A stretch of DNA of 64,000 bases from Candidatus Parcubacteria bacterium (GTDB taxonomy: Bacteria > Patescibacteriota > Minisyncoccia > Minisyncoccales > JAGLUP01). This document shows, piece after piece, positions 363 through 40,776 of the stretch. The translations under genes were made by a program, and so were the position numbers. Every line of letters begins with the position of its first letter. Positions within the stretch are counted from its first letter, which is position 1. Location of the stretch: assembly GCA_023134715.1 (NCBI GenBank), contig JAGLUP010000006.1:74653-138652 (forward strand). The letters run 5' to 3'. The notes beneath the pieces were generated by a model that was not told where the DNA came from, ran no database searches, and worked only from the letters and a program-made list of their open reading frames with translations.

Positions 363-482
363 GAAAACGCAGGAAACAAATTTTGAAATCGTGGGGCCCC
401 CTCCTTTTCGCGCTTGCGCAAAAGGAGGGGGTAGGGCGCAGTTAGGGGGAAACGATTTCAAAATTTCGTTTTCGAAGTTTTC
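363..482 (-). repeat. nested-hairpin intergenic element, copy A (type 1)
   Basis: Outer inverted arms are GAAAACGCAGGAAACAAATTTTGAAATCGT and ACGATTTCAAAATTTCGTTTTCGAAGTTTTC. They enclose a GC-rich inner hairpin (CCCCCTCCTTTTCGCGC/GCGCAAAAGGAGGGGG) and GTAGGGCGCAGTTAGGGGG. Same family as 6100, 6977, 18202, 36305 and 40629. Confidence 0.85.
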
Positions 483-2242
483 TTACTAAGCACTGCTTTT
501 ATTCTTCTGATGCCTGCGCCGGATGATTGTTCTTTGATTATCTTAAAAACTCCAAGTTCGCCAGTTTTCTTAACATGAGGACCGGCGCAAATTTCTTTGG
601 AAAAATCTTGAATTGAATAAACCTTTACTATTTCTGGATATTTTTCTTTAAAAAAAGATAACGCTCCTGATTTAATCGCCTCATCTAACGGCATTTCCTT
701 TTCTATTATAATCAAATTTTGTTTAATTTTCTGATTAACAATTTCTTCAACTTTTTTCATTTGTTCAGAAGTCATTTTTTCTGAATGAGAAAAATCAAAA
801 CGAAGCCGCTCTGAATTTATATCTGAACCCATTTGTTTTACATTACTGCCTAAAACATCGCGCAAAGCTTGATGTAAAAGATGAGTGGCTGTATGAAGCT
901 GAGGACTAATTTCCCCGCCCCCTCCAAATTTCTTTTTTACTCCTGCCCGAGAAATCTCCTGGTGTTTCTTTAACTCTTTCTCAAATCCTTTCTCATCTAC
1001 TTTAAGTCCTTTCTCTTCTGCCAATTCTTTCGTCATCTCTAAAGGAAATCCATAACTCTGATAAAGATTAAAAACAATATTTCCTGGAATAATTTTGAAT
1101 TTTATAGCTTGAGTTTTAAATTCTTTCAACCCTTTTGCCAACGCTTTGCTGAATTTTTCGCTTTCATCCTGAATTACTGTTATTATGTCTGTTTCCTTTG
1201 TTTTAATTTCTGGATATACTATTCCGTAAATACTTATTATCTCTTTAATTAAATCAGCATACCAATTTTTTGACAAATTTAAAAGTTTTGCATGTCTAAT
1301 CGCTCTTCGTAAAATTCGCCTCAAAATATATCCCCTATCAACATTACTCGGCAAAACTCCATCAGCAATTAAAAAAACAGAGCCCCTAATATGGTCAGCA
1401 ATTATTCTGTAGTTTGTAGTTTGTAGTTTGTGGTTTGTAGAAGAACTTTTTTCTATACTCTCTATTAACGGCAGGAATAAATCGGTTTCATAGCTTGATG
1501 ATTTTTGTTGTAAAATAGCGACTAATCTCTCAAATCCAATCCCTGTATCCACGTTCTTCTGTGGTAATAGAATATATTTATATTTTGGATTTTGGATTTT
1601 TTTATGGTATTCCATAAAAACCAAGTTCCAGATCTCTACAAAACGACCGCAATCGCAATTAGGCCCGCATCCCTTAATACTGCACTTGCCTTTGCTGAAT
1701 TTTCTGCCTTTATCATAATGTATTTCCGAACAAGGGCCGCATGGACCAATCTCGCCTGCGGGTCCCCAAAAATTATCCTCCATTCCAAATTCAAAAATCC
1801 GCTTATTGGGAATACCATTATCCTGCCAAATTTTTATAGATTCTTTATCTTTTGGAATTTCGTTTTTGCCTTTAAATACTGTTATGTATAATTTTTCTTT
1901 GTCTAATTTGCACTCATTTAATAAAAACTCCAGCGCCCATTTCACTGCTTCCTCCTTAAAATAATCTCCAAATGACCAATTGCCAAGCATTTCAAAAAAA
2001 GTATGATGAGTATCATCCCCCACCTCCTCAATGTCTGGAGTGCGAAAACATTTTTGAACCGAGCAGACGCGACTATAATGAGATTTTATTTTGCCTGAAA
2101 GCTCGGGCGTAAATTGCTGCATTCCAGCAGTAGTTAAAAGAACCGATTCATCGTCGGGAACAAGAGAGCTTGAGCCAACAATTTTATGCCCTCTCTTTTT
2201 AAAAAAATCTAAAAACTTTTGCCTTAGTTCAAACGAAGTCAT
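458..2242 (-). CDS. alaS: alanine--tRNA ligase, short form lacking the C-Ala domain
   Basis: 594-aa ORF with N-terminus MTSFELRQKFLDFFKKRGHKIV and the GPCGPCSEIHYD core. Editing-domain motifs HTATHLLHQALRDVLG and CAGPHV are present. The last 8 codons and the stop lie inside hairpin element A. Confidence 0.9.
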   Translation of the reverse strand: MTSFELRQKFLDFFKKRGHKIVGSSSLVPDDESVLLTTAGMQQFTPELSGKIKSHYSRVCSVQKCFRTPDIEEVGDDTHHTFFEMLGNWSFGDYFKEEAVKWALEFLLNECKLDKEKLYITVFKGKNEIPKDKESIKIWQDNGIPNKRIFEFGMEDNFWGPAGEIGPCGPCSEIHYDKGRKFSKGKCSIKGCGPNCDCGRFVEIWNLVFMEYHKKIQNPKYKYILLPQKNVDTGIGFERLVAILQQKSSSYETDLFLPLIESIEKSSSTNHKLQTTNYRIIADHIRGSVFLIADGVLPSNVDRGYILRRILRRAIRHAKLLNLSKNWYADLIKEIISIYGIVYPEIKTKETDIITVIQDESEKFSKALAKGLKEFKTQAIKFKIIPGNIVFNLYQSYGFPLEMTKELAEEKGLKVDEKGFEKELKKHQEISRAGVKKKFGGGGEISPQLHTATHLLHQALRDVLGSNVKQMGSDINSERLRFDFSHSEKMTSEQMKKVEEIVNQKIKQNLIIIEKEMPLDEAIKSGALSFFKEKYPEIVKVYSIQDFSKEICAGPHVKKTGELGVFKIIKEQSSGAGIRRIKAVLSKKTSKTKF

Positions 2243-2433
2243 TTTTCCATTGCTTCTCTTTTTAACGCTTCTTCGTATTCTCGAGCGGTTCTTGTAATAT
2301 CTCTCGCAAGTGACTGCATTTTTTGGTCTATCTCGCGTATTTTTTTCTCAAATTCTTGTTTTTCTCTTTCTAATTTTTCTATGTCGTCTTGAATTTTTTC
2401 TTGTTTATTTTTTATTTCTTGACTTTTTGACAT
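2239..2433 (-). CDS. small coiled-coil protein (hypothetical)
   Basis: 64-aa K/E-rich heptad-like ORF. Its stop overlaps the alaS start (ATGA) and it fills the mnmA-alaS gap. Confidence 0.45.
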   Translation of the reverse strand: MSKSQEIKNKQEKIQDDIEKLEREKQEFEKKIREIDQKMQSLARDITRTAREYEEALKREAMEK

Positions 2434-2487
2434 AATTTTTGTTAATTAAATTAATCTTCCTCGACCAATTATATTATAACTTATTAA

Positions 2488-3522
2488 TTATAAACTGACA
2501 ATCACTCCCCCGCCTAAAAGCTCATCTTTTTGATAAAAAACTGCTGATTGGCCGGGAGTAATCGCCATCTGCGGTTTATTAAAAACAACTTTATATCTTT
2601 TATTCTTTTTTATTACTGCCAAAACGGCCTTATGCCTATATCTTATCTTAACTTTAATTTTTAAGGGCAGATTAGTATCTTTACCGGAAATCCAATTTAT
2701 ATTTTTAACTATCAATTCTTTATTATATAAATCTTTTTCATTCTTGGTAATAATTAAATGATTTCTCCTTATATCTTTGGCTAAAACATAATAGGGACCC
2801 CCGCTAAATCCCAAACCCCTTCTCTGTCCAATAGTATAAAATGCCAAACCATTGTGTTCGCCCATTATTTTCCCCTTGATATCAATAATTAAGCCTGGTT
2901 TTTGTTTAATATAATTTTTTAGAAAATCATTTGTTGTTTTTGGAATAAAACAAATTTCCTGCGAGCCAGAACTCTTATATGTTGGAAGATTAAATTTCTT
3001 TGCCAAACTTTTTACTTGCTTTCTTGTATAATTCCCCAAAGGAAATAAGACCTTTTTAAGCTGTCTCTGTTTTAAGCCCCACAAAAAATATGTCTGGTCT
3101 TTTTCCCTATCTTTCGCTTTCAAAATCTTATAATCGCTTATTCGCGCGTAATGGCCGGTAGCAAGAAAATCAAATTTGACTTTTGCTTGCCTCAATTTTT
3201 TAAACAAAATTCCAAACTTAATTTCCTTGTTGCAAACCACGCAGGGATTTGGCGTTGTTCCCGCCTTATATTCTTTTAAAAAATAATCAATTACTTTTTT
3301 CTGAAATTCTTTTCTTAAATCTAAGACCAAAAAAGGAATTCCTAAAACTTCAGCGATTTTTCTGGCTCTTTTTTCCGCTTGCTCAAACTGCGGCAAATCA
3401 CAAAGCTTCATAAAAACCCCTTCAACTTCAAAATCCTGTTTCTTCAACAGAGCCGCCGCCACAGACGAATCAATCCCGCCAGATAAAGCAATCACCACCT
3501 TTTGTTTTTTTAACAAATTCAT
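2488..3522 (-). CDS. mnmA: tRNA 2-thiouridine(34) synthase MnmA
   Basis: PP-loop VVIALSGGIDSSVAAALL, PNPCVVCN and a typical length. The ATG at 3520-3522 is preferred to the longer track start. Confidence 0.9.
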   Translation of the reverse strand: MNLLKKQKVVIALSGGIDSSVAAALLKKQDFEVEGVFMKLCDLPQFEQAEKRARKIAEVLGIPFLVLDLRKEFQKKVIDYFLKEYKAGTTPNPCVVCNKEIKFGILFKKLRQAKVKFDFLATGHYARISDYKILKAKDREKDQTYFLWGLKQRQLKKVLFPLGNYTRKQVKSLAKKFNLPTYKSSGSQEICFIPKTTNDFLKNYIKQKPGLIIDIKGKIMGEHNGLAFYTIGQRRGLGFSGGPYYVLAKDIRRNHLIITKNEKDLYNKELIVKNINWISGKDTNLPLKIKVKIRYRHKAVLAVIKKNKRYKVVFNKPQMAITPGQSAVFYQKDELLGGGVIVSL

Positions 3523-3581
3523 TAAATCAATATACCATAAAAAAAGACCCAAGAGAATTATCTCCCAGGCACATTGCTTTA

Positions 3582-4436
3582 TTATAGTCCTAACTCGGCT
3601 CTCAATATGTCTTTTCCCTCTTCTTTCCTACGGCTCAAAATCTCTGCAGCTATTTCAACAATCTTTGGATGCGCGCTGTTAAGCTTGACCTGAAGTTCTT
3701 CTACAGATAATTCATACATTCTATGTCTGACAACGTAAAAGGCCTTCTCGGCAATTACAGAACCACCATCTAATTGAAGCAAAAGCTCTTTGTCTGTCCA
3801 GTGTTTCATTCTTGCTTTTATTGCATTTAATGCGTACATACTAACAGGGTTTTTTCCTTTGGTTGCTTCCTTAATAAGCGCTTTATCAATTTCCCTATTA
3901 GACAAAGAATATTTTTCGAACAAACATGTTATCTCTTCTTGAACACTTTCATCTTTGTCTTTTAGCGCTTTAATAAGCGCTTTACGAACGTTCTTAGTAT
4001 CTTCTGTAGTTACCTTAACAAGCTTGTTTGCCGCTGTTCTTTTAACACCTGCGTCTTTATCCTTCTTTAATACATGAATAAATGCTTTGACAGCATCTTT
4101 TCTGTCTATCTTTAATGCTCTTGCCGCCGCTCTTCTAACCCTAAAACATTCGCTTTTTTTCAAAATATGGATAATCACTTCTTCTTGTTCAGGATTCAAA
4201 TCTCTTTGCTCTATTTCTGATAAAACTAATCTTTTTACGCCAGAATCACTGTTGGATAACGCCTCCGTTAAAGATATTGTAAACATAGACGATAAAATTT
4301 TATCAACATCTTTTACAGATATAGTATTTTTATATTCACCCAAAACTATATCTCTATCGCCTCCTGTCATTGTTGCCAACAACTCAATTTTTTTAATTTC
4401 CTTTTCAATCTTATCTTTTGATTCATTCATTTTCAT
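3582..4436 (-). CDS. HEAT-repeat protein
   Basis: Repeated ~30-aa helical units such as VRRAAARALKIDRKDAV and GVKRTAANKLVKV. An AGAGG RBS lies upstream. Confidence 0.5.
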   Translation of the reverse strand: MKMNESKDKIEKEIKKIELLATMTGGDRDIVLGEYKNTISVKDVDKILSSMFTISLTEALSNSDSGVKRLVLSEIEQRDLNPEQEEVIIHILKKSECFRVRRAAARALKIDRKDAVKAFIHVLKKDKDAGVKRTAANKLVKVTTEDTKNVRKALIKALKDKDESVQEEITCLFEKYSLSNREIDKALIKEATKGKNPVSMYALNAIKARMKHWTDKELLLQLDGGSVIAEKAFYVVRHRMYELSVEELQVKLNSAHPKIVEIAAEILSRRKEEGKDILRAELGL

Positions 4437-4478
4437 TACCTCTTTAGTATATTTATTTTTTAATTTTATTCTAACTAA

Positions 4479-4506
4479 ATTCTACACTAAAAACACAAAA
4501 TGTCAA
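4479..4506 (-). promoter_or_regulatory. sigma70-type promoter for the HEAT-repeat gene
   Basis: Minus strand reads TTGACA (4501-4506), a 16-nt spacer, then TAGAAT (4479-4484). Confidence 0.55.
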
Positions 4507-4522
4507 TAAAATTTTATAAATC

Positions 4523-4538
4523 ATCTGCGGCCGCAGAT
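4523..4538 (-). terminator. GC palindrome hairpin after the YkuK-like gene
   Basis: Perfect 16-bp palindrome ATCTGCGGCCGCAGAT, followed on the minus strand by a U-rich tract. Confidence 0.5.
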
Positions 4539-4576
4539 CGTTTATAATAATTTTGAAAAATGACAACCTGAAAAAT

Positions 4577-5098
4577 CTATGTAAATCTGTCTGCGACTAT
4601 TGAGGCGACGCAGGCCTCTGGTTTTATTTTTGGCTCAAAACCATTGCCTCTAATCAAGCCGACCACTTCCTTAATCATATCCTTGGTCCCCCCATTCTCC
4701 CCCACATCAGCATGAATATAGCGAAACTGATAATTTAATTTTTCTTTCTCCCTTTTTTTAATCTCTTGAGCTAAAAACTCTCTCAGACAAAGAGCCAGTT
4801 CGCAGGAAAGTAAAACTTCTTCTAAAATTCGCTGATGCCGATTATAAAATTTTTTCTCTGGATTATTTTTATAATTTATTCTCTTTAGAAAAAACCTGCC
4901 CCCTTCTCCTGTCCTTAAGGCAACTATTACTACTGGAAACTGAGGATTTTCTTCTGACGATGAATCACAGCCCACAATAATATCATAAAACTTATCTGGT
5001 TTTTCTTCCATATATCTAAATATCTCCTGAATAACCTGCTCCAATACTAAATTTCCTTTACTGGGATTAAAAAAATAACCGTTTAAAAACTTATTCAT
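4577..5098 (-). CDS. YkuK/DUF458-like (RNase H-like fold) protein
   Basis: FYDIIVGCDSS...FPVVIVALRTGEGGRFF resembles the YkuK family core. ATG at 5096-5098 was chosen because the track start is a TTG. Confidence 0.45.
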   Translation of the reverse strand: MNKFLNGYFFNPSKGNLVLEQVIQEIFRYMEEKPDKFYDIIVGCDSSSEENPQFPVVIVALRTGEGGRFFLKRINYKNNPEKKFYNRHQRILEEVLLSCELALCLREFLAQEIKKREKEKLNYQFRYIHADVGENGGTKDMIKEVVGLIRGNGFEPKIKPEACVASIVADRFT

Positions 5099-5153
5099 TA
5101 TCTTCACACTAACAAAAAACTCAAAAAAATCAAGATTAAAACCCGCAATCAAA

Positions 5154-5195
5154 GGAGCTTAGCTCCGGGAGCTAAGCTACAGGAGCTAAGCTCCC
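5154..5195. repeat. cluster of GGAGCT(A/T)AGCTCC palindromes
   Basis: Sequence GGAGCTTAGCTCC GGGAGCTAAGCTACAGGAGCTAAGCTCCC. The same word family recurs at 21838-21882 and, degenerate, at 21299-21335. Confidence 0.8.
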
Positions 5196-5204
5196 TCGGT
5201 TTAA

Positions 5205-5235
5205 TCTAAAATAAAATCCCGCAAAATTCTGCGAG
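5205..5235 (-). terminator. intrinsic terminator after the DUF92 gene
   Basis: Minus-strand RNA CUCGCA-GAAUUU-UGCGGG followed by AUUUUAUUUU. Confidence 0.6.
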
Positions 5236-5248
5236 ATTATTCCATTGC

Positions 5249-6013
5249 TTAAATTAGACAAATATACAACACTATTGCTGAACATCCGGCAATAAAAGTT
5301 GTTGTAAAATTTATCCAGTGGGTGGTATTCTTATTCCCCCACTCTCTTTCTATGGTGCAGCCAAGCAAACTGTCTATCGCAGCTCCTGCAAATCCAGCAA
5401 AAGAGCAAATTAAAAATACTGTAAATGAATATCCCCAAAACAATAAAGGTAAACTCATTATTTCAGAACCGATTAAAGAAGACAAAAATCCCCCTAAGCT
5501 TACAGCTCCAGCAGTTCCAATTTCAACTTCCTCAATTCTTAATTTTCTAAAATCAAACAAAACTGGTAGTTGCTTCAACTTAATCGCTACAGCCATCCCT
5601 ATCTCTGTAGCTGAAGTATCTGCTAAAGCGCAAGTCATTGCCGCCCATAATCCTATAAGCCAAATAGGATCGGGATACGCTATATGAAACAATCCAAATA
5701 TCATTGCCGCGCCGCCGTTAGCAAAAACATTTTTATAATCCCTCGTCTCCTGTCCTATGTTCTTTTTTTCTTTTTTCGCTTTTCCAATGCGAGTAACGAT
5801 ATTTCCGAAAACAAAAAACATTAACATTGGCCACACTCCTTTAGCTCCGAAAGCAATCAAGCAAACAGAACCCTGTGCTCCAGCTGAAAATACCGCTGTT
5901 TTATCTATCTTCTTTTTATTATATGCATACAGAAGAATTGCTCCTGTCGCTATTATCAGCCCAAATACTTGCCAATCAAAAATATTTCCTATAATTTCAT
6001 CTATTTTTATCAT
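5249..6013 (-). CDS. DUF92/TMEM19-family integral membrane protein
   Basis: Multi-pass hydrophobic 254-aa ORF with the VTRIGKAKKE...NVFANGG and IDSLLGCTIE motifs seen in DUF92 proteins. Confidence 0.55.
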   Translation of the reverse strand: MIKIDEIIGNIFDWQVFGLIIATGAILLYAYNKKKIDKTAVFSAGAQGSVCLIAFGAKGVWPMLMFFVFGNIVTRIGKAKKEKKNIGQETRDYKNVFANGGAAMIFGLFHIAYPDPIWLIGLWAAMTCALADTSATEIGMAVAIKLKQLPVLFDFRKLRIEEVEIGTAGAVSLGGFLSSLIGSEIMSLPLLFWGYSFTVFLICSFAGFAGAAIDSLLGCTIEREWGNKNTTHWINFTTTFIAGCSAIVLYICLI

Positions 6014-6061
6014 CTTTTACCACCTCAATTATATTTAAAATTTAATATACTATAATTCTTA

Positions 6062-6089
6062 ATCCTAACAAATCTTATAAATATGTCAA
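6062..6089 (-). promoter_or_regulatory. sigma70-type promoter for the DUF92 gene
   Basis: Minus strand reads TTGACA (6084-6089), 16 nt, then TAGGAT (6062-6067). A GAGGTGG RBS precedes the ATG. Confidence 0.5.
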
Positions 6090-6099
6090 CAAAATTATA

Positions 6100-6201
6100 G
6101 AAAACGCAGAAAACAAATTTTGAAATCGTAGGTGTGGGCGAGCGCCCGAGCGAAGCGAGGGTAGGGATAAACGATTTCAAAATTTAGTTTTCGGAGTTTT
6201 C
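6100..6201 (-). repeat. nested-hairpin intergenic element, copy B (type 1, divergent core)
   Basis: GAAAACGCAGAAAACAAATTTTGAAATCGT ... ACGATTTCAAAATTTAGTTTTCGGAGTTTTC with GC-rich core GGCGAGCGCCCGAGCGAAGCGAGGGTAGGG. Confidence 0.85.
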
Positions 6202-6206
6202 GAAAC

Positions 6207-6968: not shown

Positions 6969-6976
6969 ATATAAAA

Positions 6977-7086
6977 GAAAACGAAAGAAATAAATTTTGA
7001 AATCGTGGGGCCCCGATAGGTGAAAGCTATCGGGGTAGGGCGCGGTTAGGGGGAAACGATTTCAAAATTTCGTTTCTGAAGTTTTC
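6977..7086 (-). repeat. nested-hairpin intergenic element, copy C (type 1)
   Basis: Outer arms as in copy A, with inner hairpin CCCCGATAG-GTGAAAG-CTATCGGGG then TAGGGCGCGGTTAGGGGG. Only 8 nt separate it from the tpiA start. Confidence 0.9.
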
Positions 7087-7091
7087 GATAT

Positions 7092-8847: not shown

Positions 8848-8987
8848 AAATAATAAGTGATTATTGATTATTGATAAATGATTATTAATTATTGATAAAT
8901 GATTATTAATTCATTATAACAAAACAAACAAAAAAACAATAGTGAATAAGTAGAAAGTAGAAAGTAGAAAGTAAAGAAATAAAAAAC

Positions 8988-9023
8988 ATAACACATATAG
9001 CACGATCGTTGTATATGTGTTAT
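8988..9023. repeat. 36-bp CGATCG-centred palindrome, copy P1
   Basis: ATAACACATATAGCACGATCGTTGTATATGTGTTAT, preceded by (GTAGAAA)x3. Confidence 0.9.
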
Positions 9024-9095
9024 ACAATAAAATAAACATAAAAAAAGAGACGCTCGGTTTTCCCAAACGCCCTATTTTAATTCTATCTAAAAAAA

Positions 9096-18157: not shown

Positions 18158-18201
18158 ATATAATAATAAAATTTCTAATTTCTAATTTCTAAATAAATTA
18201 A

Positions 18202-18311
18202 GAAAACGAAGAAAACAAATTTTGAAATCGTGGGGTCCCGATAGGTGAAAGCTATCGGGATAGGGCGCGGTTAGGGGGAAACGATTTCAAAATTTCGTTT
18301 TCAGAGTTTTC
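18202..18311 (-). repeat. nested-hairpin intergenic element, copy D (type 1) inside the S10 operon
   Basis: Near-identical to copy C but with a compensatory C:G to T:A change at the base of the inner hairpin (TCCCGATAG...CTATCGGGA). Confidence 0.9.
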
Positions 18312-20637: not shown

Positions 20638-20737
20638 ATAATTATAAATTATAAAAATTGACTCTTTTCAGAGCCAAAATTACCTTAACGGATTTCACTC
20701 TGCGCAATCAATTTAATATAACCATTGATATATTTTT

Positions 20738-20765
20738 ATATTACCCTTTTCCAAAAAAAAGTCAA
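20738..20765 (-). promoter_or_regulatory. sigma70-type promoter newly serving rplD
   Basis: Minus strand reads GGGGTTGACT (20760-20765), 16 nt, then TAATAT (20738-20743). The GGGGTTGACTTTTTTT context matches the tuf promoter. Confidence 0.6.
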
Positions 20766-20826
20766 CCCCGTAGTGAGATGTTTAATCCCATGATGTTTAA
20801 TCCCGTGGATTAAACACTAACAAACA

Positions 20827-20855
20827 TTGACTTTTAGACCATAATTTGGTATAAT
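20827..20855 (+). promoter_or_regulatory. cassette 1 promoter (extended -10)
   Basis: TTGACT (20827-20832), a 17-nt spacer ending in TGG, then TATAAT (20850-20855). Confidence 0.75.
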
Positions 20856-20921
20856 ATAATTGTTTCAAATAAATAAATGAAACAATATTAAAAAACAAAT
20901 ATACAAAAAGGGTGATAAAAA

Positions 20922-21086
20922 ATGAAGATAAAAGTAATGTATGTAATTGGTGGAGTACTTTTGGGCTTCGGACTTACTAGGTTTGGCATATATATAGCTA
21001 GAGTCACTAATTCTTCAAAGATGATTGGAGCTGTATTCGGACTATTAACCGCAATAGGAATTATAATTATCTTGGAGTTGCTCTAA
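20922..21086 (+). CDS. 54-aa hydrophobic two-helix peptide (cassette 1)
   Basis: Not in the track (<60 aa). GGGTGA RBS lies 6 nt before the ATG. Sequence MKIKVMYVIGGVLLGFGLTRFGIYIARVTNSSKMIGAVFGLLTAIGIIIILELL. It is flanked by a strong promoter and a conserved terminator module. Confidence 0.6.
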   Translation: MKIKVMYVIGGVLLGFGLTRFGIYIARVTNSSKMIGAVFGLLTAIGIIIILELL

Positions 21087-21092
21087 AATCTT

Positions 21093-21159
21093 TTCGGGCG
21101 GACTATAAAAAAATAAAAGGTATTCAACTTAAGAAAAAGTTGCTCTGCCGATTTTTTTT
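21093..21159 (+). terminator. conserved cassette 3' module, copy 1
   Basis: TTCGGGCGGAC...CAACTT-AAGAAAA-AGTTG-CTCTGCCGA followed by T8. The outer stem is UCGG(G)CGG/CUGCCGA. Confidence 0.6.
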
Positions 21160-21175
21160 ATGTTATAATCTCTAT

Positions 21176-21275
21176 TGTGGTGGGGATGGCGCAGTGCTAT
21201 ACTTATATCAGTTAATAATCCTGGTTCTTGCATTACGTTAAGACCAGCAAAAGCTCTGCGAAAGCAGGGTTTTTT
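21176..21275 (+). ncRNA. candidate ~100-nt small RNA downstream of cassette 1
   Basis: Putative promoter TTGCTC (21140-21145), 18 nt, TATAAT (21164-21169). Internal hairpin CTGGTT...GACCAG. Clean terminator CTCTGC-GAAA-GCAGGG + T6 (21254-21275). No ORF. Confidence 0.35.
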
Positions 21276-21346
21276 GTTCGCCTAAAATTTGTAAAAAATT
21301 GTAAGGAGCTTTGTAAGGAGCTAAACTCCTTACAATTCTACAAACA

Positions 21347-21375
21347 TTGACTTTTAGGCCATAATTTGATATAAT
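21347..21375 (+). promoter_or_regulatory. cassette 2 promoter (extended -10)
   Basis: TTGACT (21347-21352), a 17-nt spacer ending in TGA, then TATAAT (21370-21375). Confidence 0.75.
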
Positions 21376-21435
21376 ATAATTGTTTCAAGTCAAAAGAAAC
21401 AAATTTAAAAAAATAAATATACCGAGGTGATGAAA

Positions 21436-21741
21436 ATGACATGGAAACTAATTCGAAGAAAGGGCACACCTGTCTATATGGTATTGGATGAAAGGGAAGA
21501 AGAAGAATTAAAAAAAGAATGCGATCTAACCGACGCAGATATTGACATTTTAGGAGAATTCAGAACAAAAGAAGATGGTCTAGATGTAAAGGATAAAATT
21601 TTTACAGTGACTACTATAAATTCTTATACGGGCAAAAAAGAAGAAACATGGAGTCGCGAAGCTGGTGAAAACTTTGCTGATAGGTTAGATTTTGACGAAA
21701 ATTTAGCAAAGACTATGCAAGAAATGCATTCTTTGTCTTAA
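21436..21741 (+). CDS. 101-aa acidic soluble protein (cassette 2), hypothetical
   Basis: GAGGTGA RBS, then ATG at 21436 (the track starts at GTG 21427). Sequence MTWKLIRRKGTPVYMVLDEREEEELKKECDLTDADIDILGEF... No family recognised. Confidence 0.6.
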   Translation: MTWKLIRRKGTPVYMVLDEREEEELKKECDLTDADIDILGEFRTKEDGLDVKDKIFTVTTINSYTGKKEETWSREAGENFADRLDFDENLAKTMQEMHSLS

Positions 21742-21746
21742 AGTCT

Positions 21747-21812
21747 TTCGGGCGGACTATAAAAAAACAAACGGTATTCAACTTAAAAAAAGTTGCTCTG
21801 CCGATTTTTTTT
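21747..21812 (+). terminator. conserved cassette 3' module, copy 2
   Basis: Identical to copy 3 over about 75 nt. Confidence 0.6.
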
Positions 21813-21837
21813 ATCTAATTTTCCCTGCCTGTAACTT

Positions 21838-21882
21838 AAGGAGCTTAGCTACAGGAGCTTAGCTACAGGAGCTTAGCTCCTT
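21838..21882. repeat. GGAGCTTAGCT tandem/palindrome block upstream of cassette 3 promoter
   Basis: AAGGAGCTTAGCTACAGGAGCTTAGCTACAGGAGCTTAGCTCCTT, i.e. 14-bp unit x2.5 ending in a palindrome. Same word family as 5154-5195. Confidence 0.85.
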
Positions 21883-21898
21883 GAAATTCTACAAAACA

Positions 21899-21927
21899 TT
21901 GACTTTCACGCCATAATTTGGTATAAT
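21899..21927 (+). promoter_or_regulatory. cassette 3 promoter (extended -10)
   Basis: TTGACT (21899-21904), a 17-nt spacer ending in TGG, then TATAAT (21922-21927). Confidence 0.75.
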
Positions 21928-21993
21928 GTAATTGTTTCAAATAAATAAATGAAACAATATTAAAAAACAAATATACAAAAAGGGTGATAAAAA

Positions 21994-22146
21994 ATGAAGA
22001 TTTTAAAAGGAATAGGACATGTTTTGCTTGGTTTTGGAATAGTAACATTGACTACCGTGATAATAATACCAGGCACCCACATAGTGGAATCTTTCATAGG
22101 TGGGATGTTAATAGGCGTTGGTGGAATGTTTTGTGGAACTGAGTAA
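21994..22146 (+). CDS. 50-aa hydrophobic two-helix peptide (cassette 3)
   Basis: Not in the track. The leader differs from cassette 1 at one base. Sequence MKILKGIGHVLLGFGIVTLTTVIIIPGTHIVESFIGGMLIGVGGMFCGTE. Confidence 0.6.
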   Translation: MKILKGIGHVLLGFGIVTLTTVIIIPGTHIVESFIGGMLIGVGGMFCGTE

Positions 22147-22167
22147 ACTCTCTCAAAAATCAGTCCT

Positions 22168-22233
22168 TTCGGGCGGACTATAAAAAAACAAACGGTATTC
22201 AACTTAAAAAAAGTTGCTCTGCCGATTTTTTTT
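22168..22233 (+). terminator. conserved cassette 3' module, copy 3
   Basis: TTTCGGGCGGACTATAAAAAAACAAACGGTATTCAACTTAAAAAAAGTTGCTCTGCCGA + T8. Confidence 0.6.
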
Positions 22234-22285
22234 ATCTAATTTTTCAACTTTTTATTTTTTCCACTCAATTTTAACTTTTCAAAAC

Positions 22286-22321
22286 ATAACACATATACCA
22301 CGATCGTTGTATATGTGTTAT
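22286..22321. repeat. 36-bp CGATCG-centred palindrome, copy P2
   Basis: ATAACACATATACCACGATCGTTGTATATGTGTTAT. Confidence 0.9.
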
Positions 22322-22370
22322 ACTTTCCAACAAGCTATTTGAGAATAAAAGCCCATACAACATATAATAA

Positions 22371-22406
22371 AATAACAAATCAGGCCGATCGGCCTGATTT
22401 GTTATT
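22371..22406. terminator. 36-bp perfect palindrome, likely bidirectional terminator between rplC and the cassette array
   Basis: AATAACAAATCAGGCCGA|TCGGCCTGATTTGTTATT is exactly self-complementary. It has a CGATCG centre and U-rich flanks on both strands. Confidence 0.65.
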
Positions 22407-22468
22407 TATTCGCCACTTATTAATTATCAATTATCATTTATTAATTATTAATAATCAATAATTATTTA

Positions 22469-32503: not shown

Positions 32504-32509
32504 TATGTG

Positions 32510-34232: not shown

Positions 34233-34278
34233 AATAATATAAATTTAATTGATACTTAGAATCTTAAATCGACCTTTT

Positions 34279-34596: not shown

Positions 34597-34615
34597 TAAT
34601 ATATTATAAAGGATT

Positions 34616-35638: not shown

Positions 35639-35640
35639 AT

Positions 35641-36033
35641 TCAGACCTTTAGATATTTTTCAATTACTTTTCTTAATGTTCTTTTAGCTAACTCTGAACA
35701 ATGAACTTTAACTCCGGGCATATCGCCCAAATGTTTAACTATATCTTCTGTTTTTATTTTCCCTGCCTTGCTTATCGTTATACCGCTTATCATATCGCAA
35801 AGAGCAGAGCCGGAAACAAGAGCGCCGGCGCATCCAGTGGTTTGAAACTTTGCCTGTTTTATAATATTATCCTTAATTTTAAGATAAATTTCCATCGTGT
35901 CTCCGCACGGTCCGGTATAAGAAGAAAAAACTGAAGCATTTTCAATTTTCCCTAAATTTTTCTTTTCTACAAAATACTCTTGAGCTTTTTCAGAATATCC
36001 TAATTTTTTTAATAATTCAACCGTATTACTCAT
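35641..36033 (-). CDS. IscU/NifU-like Fe-S scaffold protein
   Basis: GPCGDTMEIYL, the TTGCAGALVSGS cysteines, and HCSELA. Confidence 0.65.
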   Translation of the reverse strand: MSNTVELLKKLGYSEKAQEYFVEKKNLGKIENASVFSSYTGPCGDTMEIYLKIKDNIIKQAKFQTTGCAGALVSGSALCDMISGITISKAGKIKTEDIVKHLGDMPGVKVHCSELAKRTLRKVIEKYLKV

Positions 36034-36036
36034 TTA

Positions 36037-36303
36037 TTACTTGTCTTTGTTTTCTAAGATGGCGTCAACGAGAACTTGTTTTTCTGGTTCGCCGGAAAAT
36101 CTGGTGATTTCCTTGCCTTGTTTATCCAAATAAATAAAAGCGGGTAAACCAAAAAGTTGATATTGCTGTTTTACTTCGGGGTTTTCGTCAACCCCAATAT
36201 ATTCGGTCTCTAACCAGGGATATTCTTTTTCAATTTCCTCCCAGCGCGGTTTCATTATTTTACAGCCCGGACAATTCTTGGCTCCAAATTTTAATACTTT
36301 CAT
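36037..36303 (-). CDS. thioredoxin-fold protein
   Basis: FGAKNCPGCK CxxC motif. ATG at 36301-36303 is preferred because the track start is a TTG inside repeat E. Confidence 0.65.
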   Translation of the reverse strand: MKVLKFGAKNCPGCKIMKPRWEEIEKEYPWLETEYIGVDENPEVKQQYQLFGLPAFIYLDKQGKEITRFSGEPEKQVLVDAILENKDK

Positions 36304-36304
36304 A

Positions 36305-36465
36305 GGAAACAAATTTTTCAATGCAAGAATTCTGGATTTTCTGAGACGCGTAGGGCTCCCTCCCGTCCCGATAGTTTCCGCCTATCGGGACGGGAAGGGA
36401 TAAAGCGCGAGGAAAAGACAGAATTCGAGCAAAAAAAATTTTAAAATTTAGTTTTTAGAGTTTTC
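36305..36465 (-). repeat. nested-hairpin intergenic element, copy E (type 2 core)
   Basis: Outer arms GGAAACAAATTTTT / AAAATTTAGTTTTTAGAGTTTTC. Middle arms GAATTCTGGATTTTCTGAGACGCG / CGCGAGGAAAAGACAGAATTC. Inner hairpin TCCCGTCCCGATAG-TTTCCGC-CTATCGGGACGGGA. Confidence 0.85.
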
Positions 36466-36496
36466 TGAATTCAAAAAATAATTATTATTCAACTTT

Positions 36497-37714
36497 TTAT
36501 ACAAAACCAAAAACCATAGCCAATCCTAATCCAAAAATAATAAGACCGGCTATTAAATGTAAATATCTTATATTCTTTTCCTTCCACGCGGAAACATCTT
36601 CCACTTTTCTTAAACCTAAATAAATCAAACCAATTATTACCAACATCGGAAAAATAAATATCAAATTATACATTAATAGCCAGGGAAAAATTTCCATTAA
36701 TTCACAGGCAGATAAAATCCCGCCGCAAATAATATAAGGGCCGATAGTGCAAGGAAGTAAAAATACAGTAACAAAAGCGCCTACCCCAAACGCTCCTTTA
36801 GGCGAAGTAATTCCAGAGATTATTTTTTTAACTTTTGGCCTTAAAAACATCGGCATTTCAGTTAAAAATCCTCCCGGCTTATACTTTAAAAAATCTCTGA
36901 TATTTAAAATTCCTAATATAGTTGCCGCTCCTCCTAAAAATTTATAAATCCAAATTTTAACCGAGGTCAGAACCTGAATGGTCTGAAAAAATTTAATAAT
37001 TATCAATCCATAGAAAAAATACATCACAAATACAGAGGCAACAAAAGCTAAGCCAGTTAATAGAACCCTTTTTTTATCTTTAGGATTATAAGTTAAAATA
37101 GCGGTAAGCATTAAAATTAGAACTGCCAAGGCGCAGGGATTTACAGCGTCCACTGCGGCTAAAGATAAAATTTTAGCCAAAGTAAGCTGTGTTTTAATTT
37201 TTCCCGAAGATTGTCCTGGGTTGTCTGGTAATGTTTGAAATCCCTGTTTTAATATTTTCGGCTTGCCGGGTAAAGAATCTATGTCTAAATCTTTAAAATG
37301 AACAGAAGAGCCATCTATCAAAGGACATTTATTACTGTCTTTATTTTCAATCATTTCTCTAACATTATCCAAAATCGGTTTATCTCCTAAAATATGTTCT
37401 TGTTTATTAAAAATTATCAAAGGAATGCCTAATCCTGAATCATAAACAGAATTATATTCGTAAAGCAAGGGGGCGTTCTCTTTCTGCTGATAAATCTCGT
37501 ATTCTACAATAACTAAATTCGGATATTCTTTTGTCAATTGTTCAAGAACCAATGGATCCGCCTGAGCGCAATGAGTACAGCCAATGCCGGTAAAATAAAC
37601 TATGCAAACATTATCATCCTCCTGCGCTAAAATCCCCTGACCAATCCCAAAACCAAAAACCGCAATTATTCCCAAAAAAACAAATTTTAATAAAACATTT
37701 TTTTGTTTTAACAT
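36497..37714 (-). CDS. thioredoxin-like domain fused to CcdA/DsbD-type transmembrane thiol-disulfide transporter
   Basis: N-terminal GIGCTHCAQ, then AAVDAVNPCALAVL and LLPCTIGPY TM cysteines. Confidence 0.55.
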   Translation of the reverse strand: MLKQKNVLLKFVFLGIIAVFGFGIGQGILAQEDDNVCIVYFTGIGCTHCAQADPLVLEQLTKEYPNLVIVEYEIYQQKENAPLLYEYNSVYDSGLGIPLIIFNKQEHILGDKPILDNVREMIENKDSNKCPLIDGSSVHFKDLDIDSLPGKPKILKQGFQTLPDNPGQSSGKIKTQLTLAKILSLAAVDAVNPCALAVLILMLTAILTYNPKDKKRVLLTGLAFVASVFVMYFFYGLIIIKFFQTIQVLTSVKIWIYKFLGGAATILGILNIRDFLKYKPGGFLTEMPMFLRPKVKKIISGITSPKGAFGVGAFVTVFLLPCTIGPYIICGGILSACELMEIFPWLLMYNLIFIFPMLVIIGLIYLGLRKVEDVSAWKEKNIRYLHLIAGLIIFGLGLAMVFGFV

Positions 37715-37724
37715 TTTAATTTTT

Positions 37725-38063
37725 CTAAATTTTCACCAATGAAGTGAATTTGTTAAAATTTAACAATGTTTTAGATATCTTAAAAAATTCGTCTATATTT
37801 TTATTCTTTTTCAGATAAAACTCGGCTAAAACATCCCTAAATCTTAATAATTCCTTTAAGCCCTTTTGCCAGCGCTGGTCATTGATTGTCAAATCTATAA
37901 GCTCAAACGCCCTATTTAAACAATTTAAAATTTCTTGCTCATTATTTTTTACCAGCCAGCTCTTTGTACGAGAAAATTCAGCCGCAATATTTAGAATCTG
38001 CTCTTCTTTAGAAAAATTCTGCCACTTCTGTGATCCTAAATTTTTATGAAATTTATTCTCCAT
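37725..38063 (-). CDS. hypothetical helical protein
   Basis: 112-aa ORF overlapping the upstream gene by 11 nt. No family recognised. Confidence 0.4.
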   Translation of the reverse strand: MENKFHKNLGSQKWQNFSKEEQILNIAAEFSRTKSWLVKNNEQEILNCLNRAFELIDLTINDQRWQKGLKELLRFRDVLAEFYLKKNKNIDEFFKISKTLLNFNKFTSLVKI

Positions 38064-38412
38064 AAATCAACTTTTTAATTATTTGATTAATTTTATTTCT
38101 TATCTCCTGATTTTCAACATTCATTGAGTAATTATCTTGAGAAGGCCTAATATTAATTAAGGAAGAATATTCAATCTGTTCTTCTTTTTTTTGCTTTAGA
38201 GAATATAAATTAGCGCCCCATAAATTTTTATTATCAGACCCGTCTTTTATAAGCAATTCAGCGGCATCAGAATGAAGCTCTCCGCCCAAAGCAATTATTT
38301 CGCGCTCAATATCAACTACAAACTTAATCATTTCTTTAAAAGGATTATCTAAGAACTTTTTCAGATATTCTTTATTTATTTTTTCTTTAATAATTTCTAT
38401 TGGATATTCCAT
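38053..38412 (-). CDS. hypothetical protein (possibly DUF5674-like)
   Basis: KFVVDIEREIIALGGELHSDAAELLIKDGS...LWGANLY. The assignment is from memory only. Confidence 0.35.
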   Translation of the reverse strand: MEYPIEIIKEKINKEYLKKFLDNPFKEMIKFVVDIEREIIALGGELHSDAAELLIKDGSDNKNLWGANLYSLKQKKEEQIEYSSLINIRPSQDNYSMNVENQEIRNKINQIIKKLIYGE

Positions 38413-38417
38413 TAATT

Positions 38418-39080
38418 CTAAAGCAGTTTAAAATTATTAATTACCAAGCCGAAATCATAATTTAAATATTTTGCCGCTTTTCTGCAGTAAACCATTCTGT
38501 TTGTAAAAATTTCAAAATACTCCATAATCGGCACAAAATTAGTGTCAATTTTAAAAGTTAAAGTAATTCTTTTCTTTGTTTTATCAATTTTTAAACGGCT
38601 CATTTTTGTCGCAAAATTAACCCTATCATGAATGTCAGATTTTATCTCATCTATAACTTTGCGAATTACTCTTGAGCGATGCACATCTGACTTGTCAGCC
38701 AAAACAACAACAGCGGAAATCGGATTGGTAAAATTCATTTCTCCTTTATCGTGATTAGAAATCGCTTCCATAATTAAAACCAACTCTTCGGGACTAAAAT
38801 CATTGCTAAAAACCTGCTGAAAAAGCAAAGCTCCGAAATAATTATGATTAGTGCGGCTTAAAAAATTTGCCATATCATGGCAGAACCCGGCAATCGCAGA
38901 CAATTCCTGCTCTTTTTCACTTAATCCTATTTCTTTAGCAACGCTCCTCGCGCGATCAGCCACTAGATTAGAATGCCTTAAGCCATGCTCTGTAAAAGAA
39001 AGAGCGGCAAGAGAAATTTCTGTTTGTTTAATAAATTCTAAAATATAAAGATTTTTTTTAACTTGTTTTAAAGTAATCAT
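38418..39080 (-). CDS. HD-domain phosphohydrolase
   Basis: HGLRHS...GFCHDMAN H..HD motifs. Confidence 0.65.
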   Translation of the reverse strand: MITLKQVKKNLYILEFIKQTEISLAALSFTEHGLRHSNLVADRARSVAKEIGLSEKEQELSAIAGFCHDMANFLSRTNHNYFGALLFQQVFSNDFSPEELVLIMEAISNHDKGEMNFTNPISAVVVLADKSDVHRSRVIRKVIDEIKSDIHDRVNFATKMSRLKIDKTKKRITLTFKIDTNFVPIMEYFEIFTNRMVYCRKAAKYLNYDFGLVINNFKLL

Positions 39081-39094
39081 AAATTAAATTAAAA

Positions 39095-39352
39095 TTAAAA
39101 ATTAAAATCAGGCATCTGCGACATTTTTTGAGCCACAGCCATTTGAACTTTTTTTATTGCTTCATTAAAGCAATCCTTTAAAATTTTTTCCTGTTCTTGC
39201 TTGCTAAATTCTGAATTAAGCTGAATCTCTTCAATTTCCATCTTTCCGTTGAAAATAACTTTTATTCCTTGTTTTTCAACCTCCACTCTTTCATCTTTAA
39301 GAGAATCCTGCAGCTCCTTAAGTCTTTTTAATTGTGATAATTTATCAAACAT
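39095..39352 (-). CDS. YbaB/EbfC-family nucleoid-associated protein
   Basis: Size and the LKELQDSL...GIKVIFNGKMEIEEIQLN...ILKDCFNEAIKKVQ pattern. Confidence 0.6.
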   Translation of the reverse strand: MFDKLSQLKRLKELQDSLKDERVEVEKQGIKVIFNGKMEIEEIQLNSEFSKQEQEKILKDCFNEAIKKVQMAVAQKMSQMPDFNF

Positions 39353-39371
39353 ATTTCGTATTTATTATTTA

Positions 39372-39557
39372 TTATTTATTTTCCTCAATCGCCTCAACTG
39401 GACAGGACTGAATTGCCTGCTTTATACATTCTTTATCCTTGTCTAAATCTGCCCCTTGCTTTATCTGGGCTTTACCTTCAATAATCTCAAAAACATCAGA
39501 ACATAAATTTTGGCAAATGCCGCAGCCAACGCATTTTTCTTTGTTTATTTTAATCAT
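39372..39557 (-). CDS. small 4Fe-4S/3Fe-4S ferredoxin
   Basis: CVGCGICQNLC ... CP. ATG at 39555-39557. Confidence 0.7.
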   Translation of the reverse strand: MIKINKEKCVGCGICQNLCSDVFEIIEGKAQIKQGADLDKDKECIKQAIQSCPVEAIEENK

Positions 39558-39561
39558 ATTT

Positions 39562-40602
39562 TTATTGTGTTTTATTAAGAAAAATTGTTTGGGTAGGATA
39601 AGCCATTTCAATACCCTCCTGTTCAAAACGTTCTTTAATCGCAAAATTCATCTCCTGTTGAGTGTTCATATAATCAACATAATTACTGGAATTTAAATAA
39701 TAGACAATTTCAAAATTTAAACTGGAATCCCCGAATTCTTTAAAATGAACCCTGTCTATTTCTGCTAACTCAGCTTTTGCTATAATCTCTTTAATAATAT
39801 TAGGAATTCTCTTTAATTTCTCTGTAGAAATTTCATAAGTCACGCCAAAACCAAAAATAATCCTTCTCTTCTCCATTTTCTTATAGTTATGTATTCTTGC
39901 TTCTGTTAATTCTTTATTTGAAACCACTAATTCTTCTCCCTGAAGGGTTTGAAGCCGCGTAGATTTTATGCCAATTTTTTTAACTACCCCCATATCGGTT
40001 CCCACAATAATAAAATCCCCCACTTGAAAGGGTTTATCAAAATAAATAGAAACCGAAGAAAAAATATCAACCAAAATATTTTGTAAAGCAAAAGCAATAG
40101 CTATGCCTCCGATTCCCAAACCAGCGATTAAAGCGGAAACATCATAACCAAAATTTGATAAAATAATCACTACAGCCACACCCCATAAAGCGCCTTTTAA
40201 AACCTTGGTTAAAATATCAATAACGCCAGTATCAACCCCTGCTTCTTCTTTTCGCTTTTCTAAGATAATCTTTTTGGCGCCATAATCAATCAAATCCTGG
40301 CATCCTTTTATTACATAGTAAGCAACACTGATAAAAACCGCGTAATAAAGAACAGCAGCTATAAATTCTGGAACTTGAATAAACTGGGAAGCAATATACA
40401 AAGGCAGGAAAAAATAAAAAGACCAGCCAATGTTCTCAATAATCTTTATTAATAAATCATCAAGCTCTGTGCTGGTTTTTTCAGCAAGCTTTTTAAGCTT
40501 AGCAATTATAAAATGCTTAAAAATCTTCAAAGCAATAACTGTTGCCACAAAAACTCCTAAAGCTAAAATATGCTCTTGTGTAAATAAAAATTTAATCTCC
40601 AT
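39562..40602 (-). CDS. MscS-family mechanosensitive channel
   Basis: Three N-terminal TMs, then FDKPFQVGDFI and GVVKKIGIKSTRL. Confidence 0.8.
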   Translation of the reverse strand: MEIKFLFTQEHILALGVFVATVIALKIFKHFIIAKLKKLAEKTSTELDDLLIKIIENIGWSFYFFLPLYIASQFIQVPEFIAAVLYYAVFISVAYYVIKGCQDLIDYGAKKIILEKRKEEAGVDTGVIDILTKVLKGALWGVAVVIILSNFGYDVSALIAGLGIGGIAIAFALQNILVDIFSSVSIYFDKPFQVGDFIIVGTDMGVVKKIGIKSTRLQTLQGEELVVSNKELTEARIHNYKKMEKRRIIFGFGVTYEISTEKLKRIPNIIKEIIAKAELAEIDRVHFKEFGDSSLNFEIVYYLNSSNYVDYMNTQQEMNFAIKERFEQEGIEMAYPTQTIFLNKTQ

Positions 40603-40628
40603 ATTTTTTATGTTATATTTTCTAAATA

Positions 40629-40776
40629 GAAAACGCAGAAAACAAATTTTTCAAGGCGAGAATTCTGGATTTTCTGAGACGCGTAGGGCTCCCATCGCGA
40701 AAGCGACGGGATAAAGCGCGAAGAAAATTCAGAGTTTGAGCCAGAAAAATTTCAAAATTTAGTTTCCGGAATTTCC
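40629..40776 (-). repeat. nested-hairpin intergenic element, copy F (type 1 outer arms, type 2 core)
   Basis: GAAAACGCAGAAAACAAATTTTT...GAATTCTGGATTTTCTGAGACGCGTAGGGCTCCC-ATCGCGAAAGCGAC-GGGATAAAGCGCG...AAAATTTAGTTTCCGGAATTTCC. Its right arm encodes the last codons and stop of the GDSL gene. Confidence 0.85.

Follow-up and report, generated by a model that had tools for sequence, protein, structure and literature searches.

Here we describe a family of short foldback elements in a 64,000-nt stretch of a Candidatus Parcubacteria genome (the window; positions 74,653 to 138,652 of contig JAGLUP010000006.1), which contains six copies, A to F. The elements are very probably insertional repeats. We also consider it probable that they are non-autonomous and recently active, of the MITE (miniature inverted-repeat transposable element) or REP (repetitive extragenic palindrome) kind, and that they occur in this genome and in some, not all, of its relatives. 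The family is a new one of this known MITE/REP-like kind, with a strand asymmetry. The junctions compared below show that the elements entered short spacers just downstream of co-directional genes, or the genes' last codons, tight operon junctions included; insertion was without target duplication and always in one orientation. A first-pass annotation of the window had noted both MITE/REP-like features and the look of a structured RNA module. The MITE/REP half of that description is borne out by empty sites, near-identical unlinked copies and modular interiors, and the RNA module or terminator half is not.

Using homologues of TPI and L22, we reached syntenic contigs of relatives whose coding DNA is 74-85% identical to that of the window (L-numbers denote other metagenome or metagenome-assembled genome (MAG) contigs). 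The GalT/TPI spacer, which holds copy C, measures 123 nt in the window, 5 nt in L028/29 and in L031, the closest relative (TPI 87% identical), and 8 nt in L033/34. The TPI/DUF92 junction (copy B) spans 193 nt in the window and 61-74 nt in L028 and L024, where the stop codon and the promoter are almost adjacent. At the end of AlaRS, the stop codon lies in copy A and the next gene starts 36 nt after the element; in L028 these two genes overlap by 20 nt. The rpsS/rplV spacer (copy D) is 165 nt in the window, compared with 11 nt in L035, 1 nt in L037, 33 nt in L038 and 12 nt in L039. Sites A, B and C are empty in the syntenic L028/L029 and L024-27, the dispersed presence/absence pattern of a MITE. 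Since their sites are empty in the closest available relatives, copies A-D are best read as insertions. Neither the covariance model R1, described below, nor a short-word BLAST search found a full copy in the relatives' loci (~84 kb after removal of duplicates and overlaps). The GalT/TPI site is occupied in L002 and contains a remnant in L032. Density is six copies per 64 kb in the window and two per 7.7 kb in L002, a more distant relative with coding DNA 65-71% identical.

The family extends beyond the window, with a further nine copies or remnants in seven other metagenome or MAG contigs, for a total of 15 copies in eight contigs. The census used a two-arm pattern over one genome per species and a core-plus-arm pattern over JGI metagenomes. 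The former returned one true relative, L002, along with four chance palindromes inside genes; the latter returned L008 (a duplicate of L002), L010, L011, L017, L018 and L021, its other matches being chance. R1, built from ten type-1 copies, recovered every copy found by pattern. The copies outside the window are in L002 (two), L010, L011, L017 (two), L018, L021 and, in truncated form, L032, where the GalT/TPI spacer holds part of a copy of the second L017 type with 33 of 35 nt identical. Two diverged copies came from R1: L002:944-1064, whose arms have swapped G and C on both sides and which has two inner hairpins, and L017:2276-2482, 207 nt long with an extended stem. Outside the window, the elements occupy short spacers between co-directional housekeeping genes (GalT/TPI, RNaseH-like/AlaRS, nusG/rplK, after frr, after lemA, sigma factor/DUF5667 and DUF11 protein/class II aaRS). 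An element lies across the start of contig L010, and the end of L018 falls 8 nt past another; such breaks are expected because multi-copy repeats interrupt assemblies. Viral contigs, scanned with one pattern per subtype, yielded no copies. The Rfam 15 covariance models gave no match at gathering score, and none of their matches up to E=5 overlaps an element.

Near-identical copies beside unrelated genes point to recent activity. Copy D is 96-97% identical to copies in L011, L017 (the first) and L018, contigs that otherwise share nothing with the window, and these D-type copies lie at nusG/rplK, after frr and at Lcl_C/HTH. The two copies of L002 have in common outer stems peculiar to that genome, with TTGC/GCAA replacing GAAAAC/GTTTTC; on account of these shared termini, the L002 GalT/TPI copy resembles its genome-mate rather than its positional counterpart, copy C. 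An ancient orthologous origin of the two GalT/TPI copies was considered and is less parsimonious, given the L002-specific termini and four intermediate relatives with 5-8-nt spacers. The most economical reading is independent, recent gains and patchy spread, in which case the GalT/TPI spacer would be a repeatedly used or well-tolerated site.

All six copies previously annotated in the window are present and co-oriented (Table 1). Window G+C is 30-43%, and essentially all of its genes (called with genetic code 11) are on the minus strand; they comprise the str/S10/spc ribosomal-protein cluster, followed by adk, map, a glycosyltransferase, GalT, TPI, DUF92, MnmA and AlaRS. The elements indeed sit directly after the 3' ends of minus-strand genes, starting -25 to +31 nt from the upstream stop codon in the six copies and -25 to +37 nt in the whole family, which matches the location of REPs close to an ORF's 3' end, between unidirectional or convergent ORFs (PMC3733652). 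Copies B, C, D and E start, in gene direction, 5-31 nt past the stop codon. The description of the copies as intergenic holds for most of them and fails for A and F, which contain the stop codon. The right arm of copy A forms the last 8 AlaRS codons and the TGA stop (458-460; ...KTSKTKF*), and the right terminus of copy F forms the last codons and the stop (40759-40761) of a GDSL-lipase ORF (...GNSGN*). Because the upstream stop codon lies within the element, A, F and the second L017 copy are not strictly intergenic; these 3 of the 15 copies supply the stop and affect the last 6-8 codons.

Copy B, which starts 5 nt past the TPI stop, precedes the DUF92 promoter; this promoter had been pointed out before and is conserved in relatives, as is the DUF92 ribosome-binding site GAGGTGG that follows it. 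Copy C was correctly placed 8 nt from the next start codon, that of TPI, and is 5 nt past the GalT stop. Copy D is inside an operon as reported, between rpsS and rplV of the S10 operon, and copy E adjoins the thioredoxin start codon. We also observed TTATAT ATG starts without a Shine-Dalgarno sequence at several genes downstream of elements (6969-6976, 18158-18170; L017:1145-1156). Translation initiation signals thus seem heterogeneous in this genome, since others, such as that of DUF92, have GAGGTGG.

Table 1 Positions of the element copies and of an adjoining promoter in the window. Strand is that of the G-rich strand for the copies; R1 scores are in bits.
Feature	Position	Strand	Description	R1 score
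Copy A	363..482	+	type 1; inner hairpin CCCCCTCCTTTTCGCGC/GCGCAAAAGGAGGGGG	115.4
Copy B	6100..6201	+	type 1, short core GTAGGTGTGGGCGAGCGCCC...GGGTAGGG	90.9
Copy C	6977..7086	+	type 1a	130.8
Copy D	18202..18311	+	type 1a, family consensus	134.2
Copy D, left arm	18202-18231
Copy D, core	18232-18280
Copy D, right arm	18281-18311
Copy E	36305..36465	+	type 2; long inner hairpin CCCGTCCCGATAG/CTATCGGGACGGG	20.9 (partial match, right arm)
Copy F	40629..40776	+	type 2, full length; inner hairpin ATCGC-GAAA-GCGAC	22.3
Promoter-like TTGACA-16-TAGGAT	6062..6089 (6089-6062)	-	for the DUF92 gene; downstream of copy B, outside the element; kept in relatives

Each unit is 102-207 bp long and contains only chance ORFs, consistent with the size of MITEs (<500 bp) and their lack of a transposase. 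The terminal inverted repeats, another MITE feature, are ~30 nt, imperfect, AT-rich and common to all subtypes. Conserved termini read GAAAAC-N3-GAAAACAAATTTTGAAATCGT ... ACGATTTCAAAATTTCGTTTTC-N3-GTTTTC, and the element bounds can also be written GAAAAC-N3-GAAAACAAATTTT ... AAAATTT-N-GTTTTC-N3-GTTTTC; in copies A-D the left terminus is GAAAACG(C/A)A(G/A)(G/A)AA(C/T)AAATTTTGAAATCGT and the right terminus ACGATTTCAAAATTT(C/A)GTTT(TC/CT)(N3)GTTTTC. A 19-nt arm motif has nine matches with at most three mismatches, against 0.28 expected, a number reached in 0 of 100 shuffles; eight of these nine are the two arms of copies A-D. A repeat search placed the right arms in register in all six copies and the left arms in five. 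Copy E is without the outermost ~10 nt on its left.

Between the arms, the plus strand carries GGGG, a variable GC-rich hairpin and a conserved unpaired tract, (G/A)TAGGGCGCGGTTAGGGGGAA, which is shorter in B. The interior modules are GC-rich and interchangeable, and consist of optional stem extensions, a variable hairpin tagged with (G/A/T)T(A/G)GGG and the unpaired G-rich tract. The conserved GTAGGG and variable inner hairpin of the first-pass annotation were recovered as GTAGGG or ATAGGG together with such a hairpin. GTAG lies 5' of the stem-loop in B, E and F; type 1a has a partly paired GTGG on the 5' side and (G/A)TAGGG on the 3' side. Tag variants include ATAGGG in the second L002 copy and TTAGGG in the second L017 copy. 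Four or more tracts of G3-5 surround the inner hairpin (GGGG..GGGGTAGGGCGCGGTTAGGGGG, read in copies A, C and D), and they are fewer or shorter in B, E and F. Type 2 (E and F) keeps the same outer termini and has inside them an extra stem, GAATTCTGGATTTTCTGAGACGCG ... CGCGA(G/A)GAAAA..., together with a GTAGGGCTCCC motif; its inner hairpin differs. Copy F had been taken for a combination of type 1 arms with a type 2 core. We rejected this chimera: with the termini, the GAATTCTGGATTTTCTGAGACGCG extension and the GTAGGGCTCCC core all shared, E and F form one subtype, of which F is the full-length form.

Two other readings of motifs in the element were set aside. KOPS-like GGGNAGGG (GGGTAGGG in A, B and C) and Chi-like GCGCG, compared with the KOPS and Chi consensus sequences, do not occur in the commonest subtype, D having GGGATAGGG, and lie on the reverse of the strand where motifs of this kind would be expected. 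There is no support for promoters, whether internal or outward, within the arms, as TTGAAA is present with no matching -10 box.

As had been proposed, all six copies fold into nested hairpins, and they do so on both strands (z -5.5 to -8.4 vs shuffled sequence), far above shuffled sequence with RNA and DNA parameters alike. Covariation was assessed in a model-guided alignment of 11 copies, in which standard pairs occupy 97.8% of cells and 16 of 36 pairs have changed on both sides, an alignment that is fitted to the structure and draws most of its variation from four or five divergent copies. None of 500 shuffles reached any of five covariation measures, and pairing was 30-60% when partners were slid. 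Compensatory substitution, which the annotation had singled out as a check, thus has statistical support. This alone does not show RNA function, because complementarity is also expected of a DNA hairpin or of inverted termini. Inner hairpins have been swapped wholesale with pairing kept: CCCGATAG/CTATCGGG, CCCCGC/GCGGGG, CCCCCTCCTTTT/AAAAGGAGGGGG and GGGCG/CGCCC.

The two strands are not equivalent. Non-Watson-Crick stem cells comprise 17 G·T on the G-rich strand (eight without one constant pair) versus one A·C, the middle stem of copy F has two further G·T on the G-rich strand, and this strand gives the more stable fold in 6/6 window copies. Since the wobbles are G·T, and the fold more stable, on the G-rich antisense strand, the strand on which the hairpin is preserved is not the mRNA strand. 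The uniform orientation reported for the window (6/6) extends to the whole family: 15/15 copies and remnants have their G-rich strand antisense to the genes that flank them (two-sided binomial about 6e-5). Because nearly all genes are co-directional in these genomes, polarity relative to transcription is inseparable from polarity relative to replication.

MITEs are defined by size, inverted termini, AT-rich intergenic targets, stable transcript hairpins, dispersed copies and direct repeats (PMC10969869), and the elements share all of these except the direct repeats. In layout the elements are close to the Correia repeat-enclosed elements (CREE) of Neisseria, which PMC10969869 and PMC2649163 describe as 100-200 bp long, without an ORF, and with ~26-30 bp terminal inverted repeats around a variable core. 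Like the elements here, CREE are dispersed, mostly intergenic in AT-rich spacers, vary in presence between related genomes, have subtypes that differ by internal modules, and give transcripts that fold into a long hairpin. The elements differ from CREE in having no target-site duplication, a strictly single orientation to genes (15/15) and a GC-rich core in an AT-rich genome; sequence similarity is absent, no parent insertion sequence (IS) is known, and the host is a Candidate Phyla Radiation bacterium.

The inner module resembles a REP of the GTAG superfamily, in which a GC-rich stem-loop lies by a GT(A/G)G-type tag and stem variants are complementary, with frequent G·T pairs (PMC3733652). 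Shared with these REPs and bacterial interspersed mosaic elements (BIMEs), which are associated with the RAYT (REP-associated tyrosine) transposases, are the GC-rich stem-loop of 6-13 bp, apparently beside a tag of broadly this type, the complementary stem changes with frequent G·T pairs, and a position close behind the upstream ORF in gaps between unidirectional ORFs, sometimes donating the stop codon, with no target-site duplication expected (PMC3733652). However, REPs are 20-40 bp, so that the present unit is three to five times longer and only its inner module is REP-sized. The tagged hairpin here is nested in 30-nt AT-rich arms, and type 1a has its clean (G/A)TAGGG 3' of the hairpin, not 5', leaving tag polarity ambiguous in the main subtype. 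The IS200/IS605-derived palindrome-associated elements (PATEs) also lack target-site duplications, insert with strand-specific polarity and depend on single-strand hairpins. PATEs, though, have distinct subterminal hairpins at each end, whereas each element here is a single foldback bounded by inverted termini; PATE insertion is 3' of a fixed 4-5-nt target, none of which is seen here; and the active PATE strand is on the lagging-strand template, while the apparent folding strand here is the other one (opposite of IS608-like elements). Rickettsia palindromic elements are likewise 100-150 bp palindromes in the small AT-rich genome of a host-dependent bacterium, some translated within coding sequence. 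Those are typically in-frame inside genes, unlike the last 6-8 codons seen in 3/15 copies here, and they show no sequence similarity. We found no description of such repeats for Parcubacteria, Patescibacteria or the Candidate Phyla Radiation in a literature survey of partial coverage, which does not prove novelty.

How the elements move is a more tentative matter. They would be moved in trans by an enzyme encoded elsewhere. A single-stranded DNA route (HUH/tyrosine-transposase-like, of the REP or IS200/IS605 type) would fit better than cut-and-paste DDE transposition, because there is no target duplication, strand polarity is strict and the G·T wobbles fall on one strand; even so, we hold this route to be possible and somewhat doubtful. 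After insertion, the element would be co-transcribed with the upstream gene, and its C-rich strand would form an AU-rich duplex of ~27-30 bp with an inner GC hairpin, presumably tolerated by the cell. This duplex may modestly affect mRNA processing or stability and would not be an efficient terminator.

Several points weigh against a mobile origin or its details. Filled and empty genomes are ~20-25% diverged in DNA, so exact insertion boundaries are unreadable, and at sites A and D there are another 36-44 nt of AT-rich spacer without counterpart in the relatives. Two further marks of mobility named in the first-pass annotation are missing. There is no target-site duplication above chance, though copies are 96-97% identical (best flanking direct repeat 2.92 nt vs 2.87 nt for a mismatched-flank control), so the direct repeats usual in young MITEs (PMC10969869) are lacking. 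Nor did the window or the fetched loci, L017 and L021 included, contain an autonomous partner, that is, a transposase or a full-length element with these termini; no RAYT (Y1 transposase) gene lies within the window. No conserved target motif was found at the junctions: flanks are A/T-rich on one side only, with no fixed tetranucleotide, unlike the 4-5-nt target of IS200/IS605-type PATEs. A selected function could instead account for the strictness of the orientation and for the conserved unpaired G-rich tract. Lastly, the G-rich strand that seems to fold is on the presumed leading-strand template, opposite of the IS200/IS605 type, which leaves the case for a single-strand route weak.

The most substantial alternative is a selected cis-acting RNA in the sense C-rich strand, which would punctuate operons through RNase III, stabilise 3' ends or act as a partial terminator or attenuator, with mobility as only its means of spread. 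Every copy lies -25 to +37 nt from an upstream stop, between co-directional genes and in one polarity; stems are kept by compensatory changes; the 3' flank is T-rich on the sense strand; B fits precisely into the interval from a stop codon to a conserved promoter; and the GalT/TPI spacer is occupied in three lineages. The 27-30-bp transcript duplex is a plausible RNase III substrate or 3' stabiliser, and RNase III binding and cleavage have a precedent in Correia elements (PMC2649163). These features have to be set against the stem mismatches, which read as G·T on the antisense strand and would read as A·C in mRNA, the less stable fold of the mRNA strand in 6/6 copies, the closest relatives' lack of the element at the same junctions, and the absence of an Rfam family match. 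A terminator role had been suggested earlier. Our scan found canonical hairpin-plus-U terminators elsewhere on the minus strand (9072-9048, 5238-5215 and 3570-3547; the first reads GGGCGTTTGG-GAAAA-CCGAGCGTCT then CTTTTTTT) and none at the elements, whose AU-rich stem base does not fit intrinsic terminator architecture. We therefore rejected a canonical (Rho-independent) identity, as the elements do not have the short GC stem, small loop and U run. Efficient termination is also unlikely because the elements landed where relatives couple genes within 1-12 nt, S10 operon included, and at rpsS/rplV it would be harmful; the relatives' tight S19/L22, GalT/TPI and AlaRS/next gene junctions have no terminator. 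On balance, a selected RNA role (terminator, processing site or stabiliser) is unlikely to be the main reason for the elements' persistence. Slightly less likely still is that they are something undescribed: either a strand-specific foldback transposon of Candidate Phyla Radiation bacteria that moves as a G-rich single-stranded hairpin, without target duplication, through an unknown or HUH-like enzyme and homes in one polarity to gene 3' ends, or a domesticated, orientation-dependent module of operon punctuation whose active strand is not the mRNA.

The product might be the G-rich strand itself, either as a small antisense RNA or as single-stranded G-rich DNA that influences replication or transcription in the form of a hairpin or G-quadruplex. 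Its G·T wobbles and lower folding energies, the GAAA-type loops it carries in F, the first L002 copy and the D type, and the four or more G3-5 tracts around the inner hairpin would suit such a role. We regard it as improbable, since no conserved promoter-like sequence was found ahead of the elements on the plus strand, the G tracts are fewer or shorter in B, E and F, and this reading alone leaves youth and insertion polymorphism unexplained. Gyrase or IHF-like binding has been reported for REP/BIME, and the conserved termini, the conserved asymmetric G-rich motif and the uniform strand polarity over 40 kb of the window would be compatible with double-stranded binding sites for a chromosomal protein (a nucleoid protein, gyrase or an IHF-like protein) spread for chromosome organisation. 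That is very improbable: the elements are absent from close relatives, and their interiors are exchanged freely while pairing is kept, which points to a constraint on a single-strand hairpin rather than on duplex sequence. As imperfect, co-oriented palindromes of 100-160 bp, each directly after a gene, the elements also recall integron attC sites, which follow gene cassettes and have core sites RYYYAAC ... GTTRRRY. We rejected this identity and give it almost no credence, because the GAAAAC/GTTTTC termini do not fit those core sites and the flanking genes (AlaRS, TPI, S19/L22, nusG/L11) are core housekeeping genes in conserved synteny, not cassettes; the window contains no integrase.

Read as recently mobile repeats, the elements bear on how Candidate Phyla Radiation genomes are viewed, which are tiny, streamlined and thought poor in mobile DNA. 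A young, proliferating repeat that splits translationally coupled housekeeping genes, S10 operon included, suggests that such genomes tolerate intergenic invaders. The repeat may serve as a marker for strain-level variation, and it is a likely cause of breaks in MAG assemblies. With its strict polarity, missing target duplication and wobbles off the mRNA strand, it offers a tractable way to ask how repeats of this hairpin type are moved and come to lie behind genes.

Other repeats and candidate mobile DNA were observed in the window and its relatives. Between rplC and rplD of the S10 operon lies a 1.8-kb block (20638-22468) where relatives have ~90-125 nt. It consists of three cassettes of roughly 520-550 bp each on the opposite (+) strand, every one comprising a promoter-like TTGACTTTTAGACCATAATTTGGTATAAT, the hairpin TTGTTTCAAATAAATAAATGAAACAA, one small ORF and, common to all three, a terminator-like CGGGCGGACTAT...GCTCTGCCGATTTTTTTT; two of the ORFs encode short hydrophobic peptides and the third is a 104-aa ORF at 21427-21741. 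The block has the look of an insertion made up of small genes, antisense in orientation and possibly toxin-like, in an array. The palindrome ATAACACATATA(G/C)CACGATCGTTGTATATGTGTTAT, 43 nt long and near-perfect, occurs in four copies (8983-9025, 22281-22323, 42094-42136 and 42768-42810), two of which bracket ORF 42206-42781, with a PaaX / Cas2-like domain; these palindromes look like transcription-factor operator sites. Tandem 14-nt units, GGAGCTTAGCT(C/A)C(N), form short palindromes in two intergenic places (5138-5208 and 21824-21894), and a similar CCCAGCTAAGCTGGG hairpin is in the L032 GalT/TPI spacer.

At the TPI/DUF92 junction of two relatives (L031:2070-2275 and L032:3470-3560) there is a different inverted-repeat insertion, with termini CCCCGTAGG.../...CCTACGGGG, flanked by TTGA(C), a duplication of the DUF92 promoter's -35 box. 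In the window, near 20766, a related CTACGGGGTTGAC lies ahead of the promoter-like site of rplD. This insertion represents a second small palindromic family in these genomes. In the spc operon of another relative, a GIY-YIG endonuclease ORF is inserted between rplN and rplX (L038:12628-12885), a further case of mobile DNA inside this lineage's ribosomal-protein operons. The window also contains three to four tandem paralogous ORFs of about 390-480 aa with weak Ig-like matches and highly similar 3' ends (43452-48810, 50244-50310, 55960-56002). Repeats of the GTTTCGTGT type are at the junctions of these paralogues, and the motif recurs upstream of other surface-protein genes. A 2622-aa ORF (55996-63864) contains laminin-G / DUF2341 domains and internal repeats of 150-260 nt, and its G+C of 43% is well above that of the rest of the window (about 34%).

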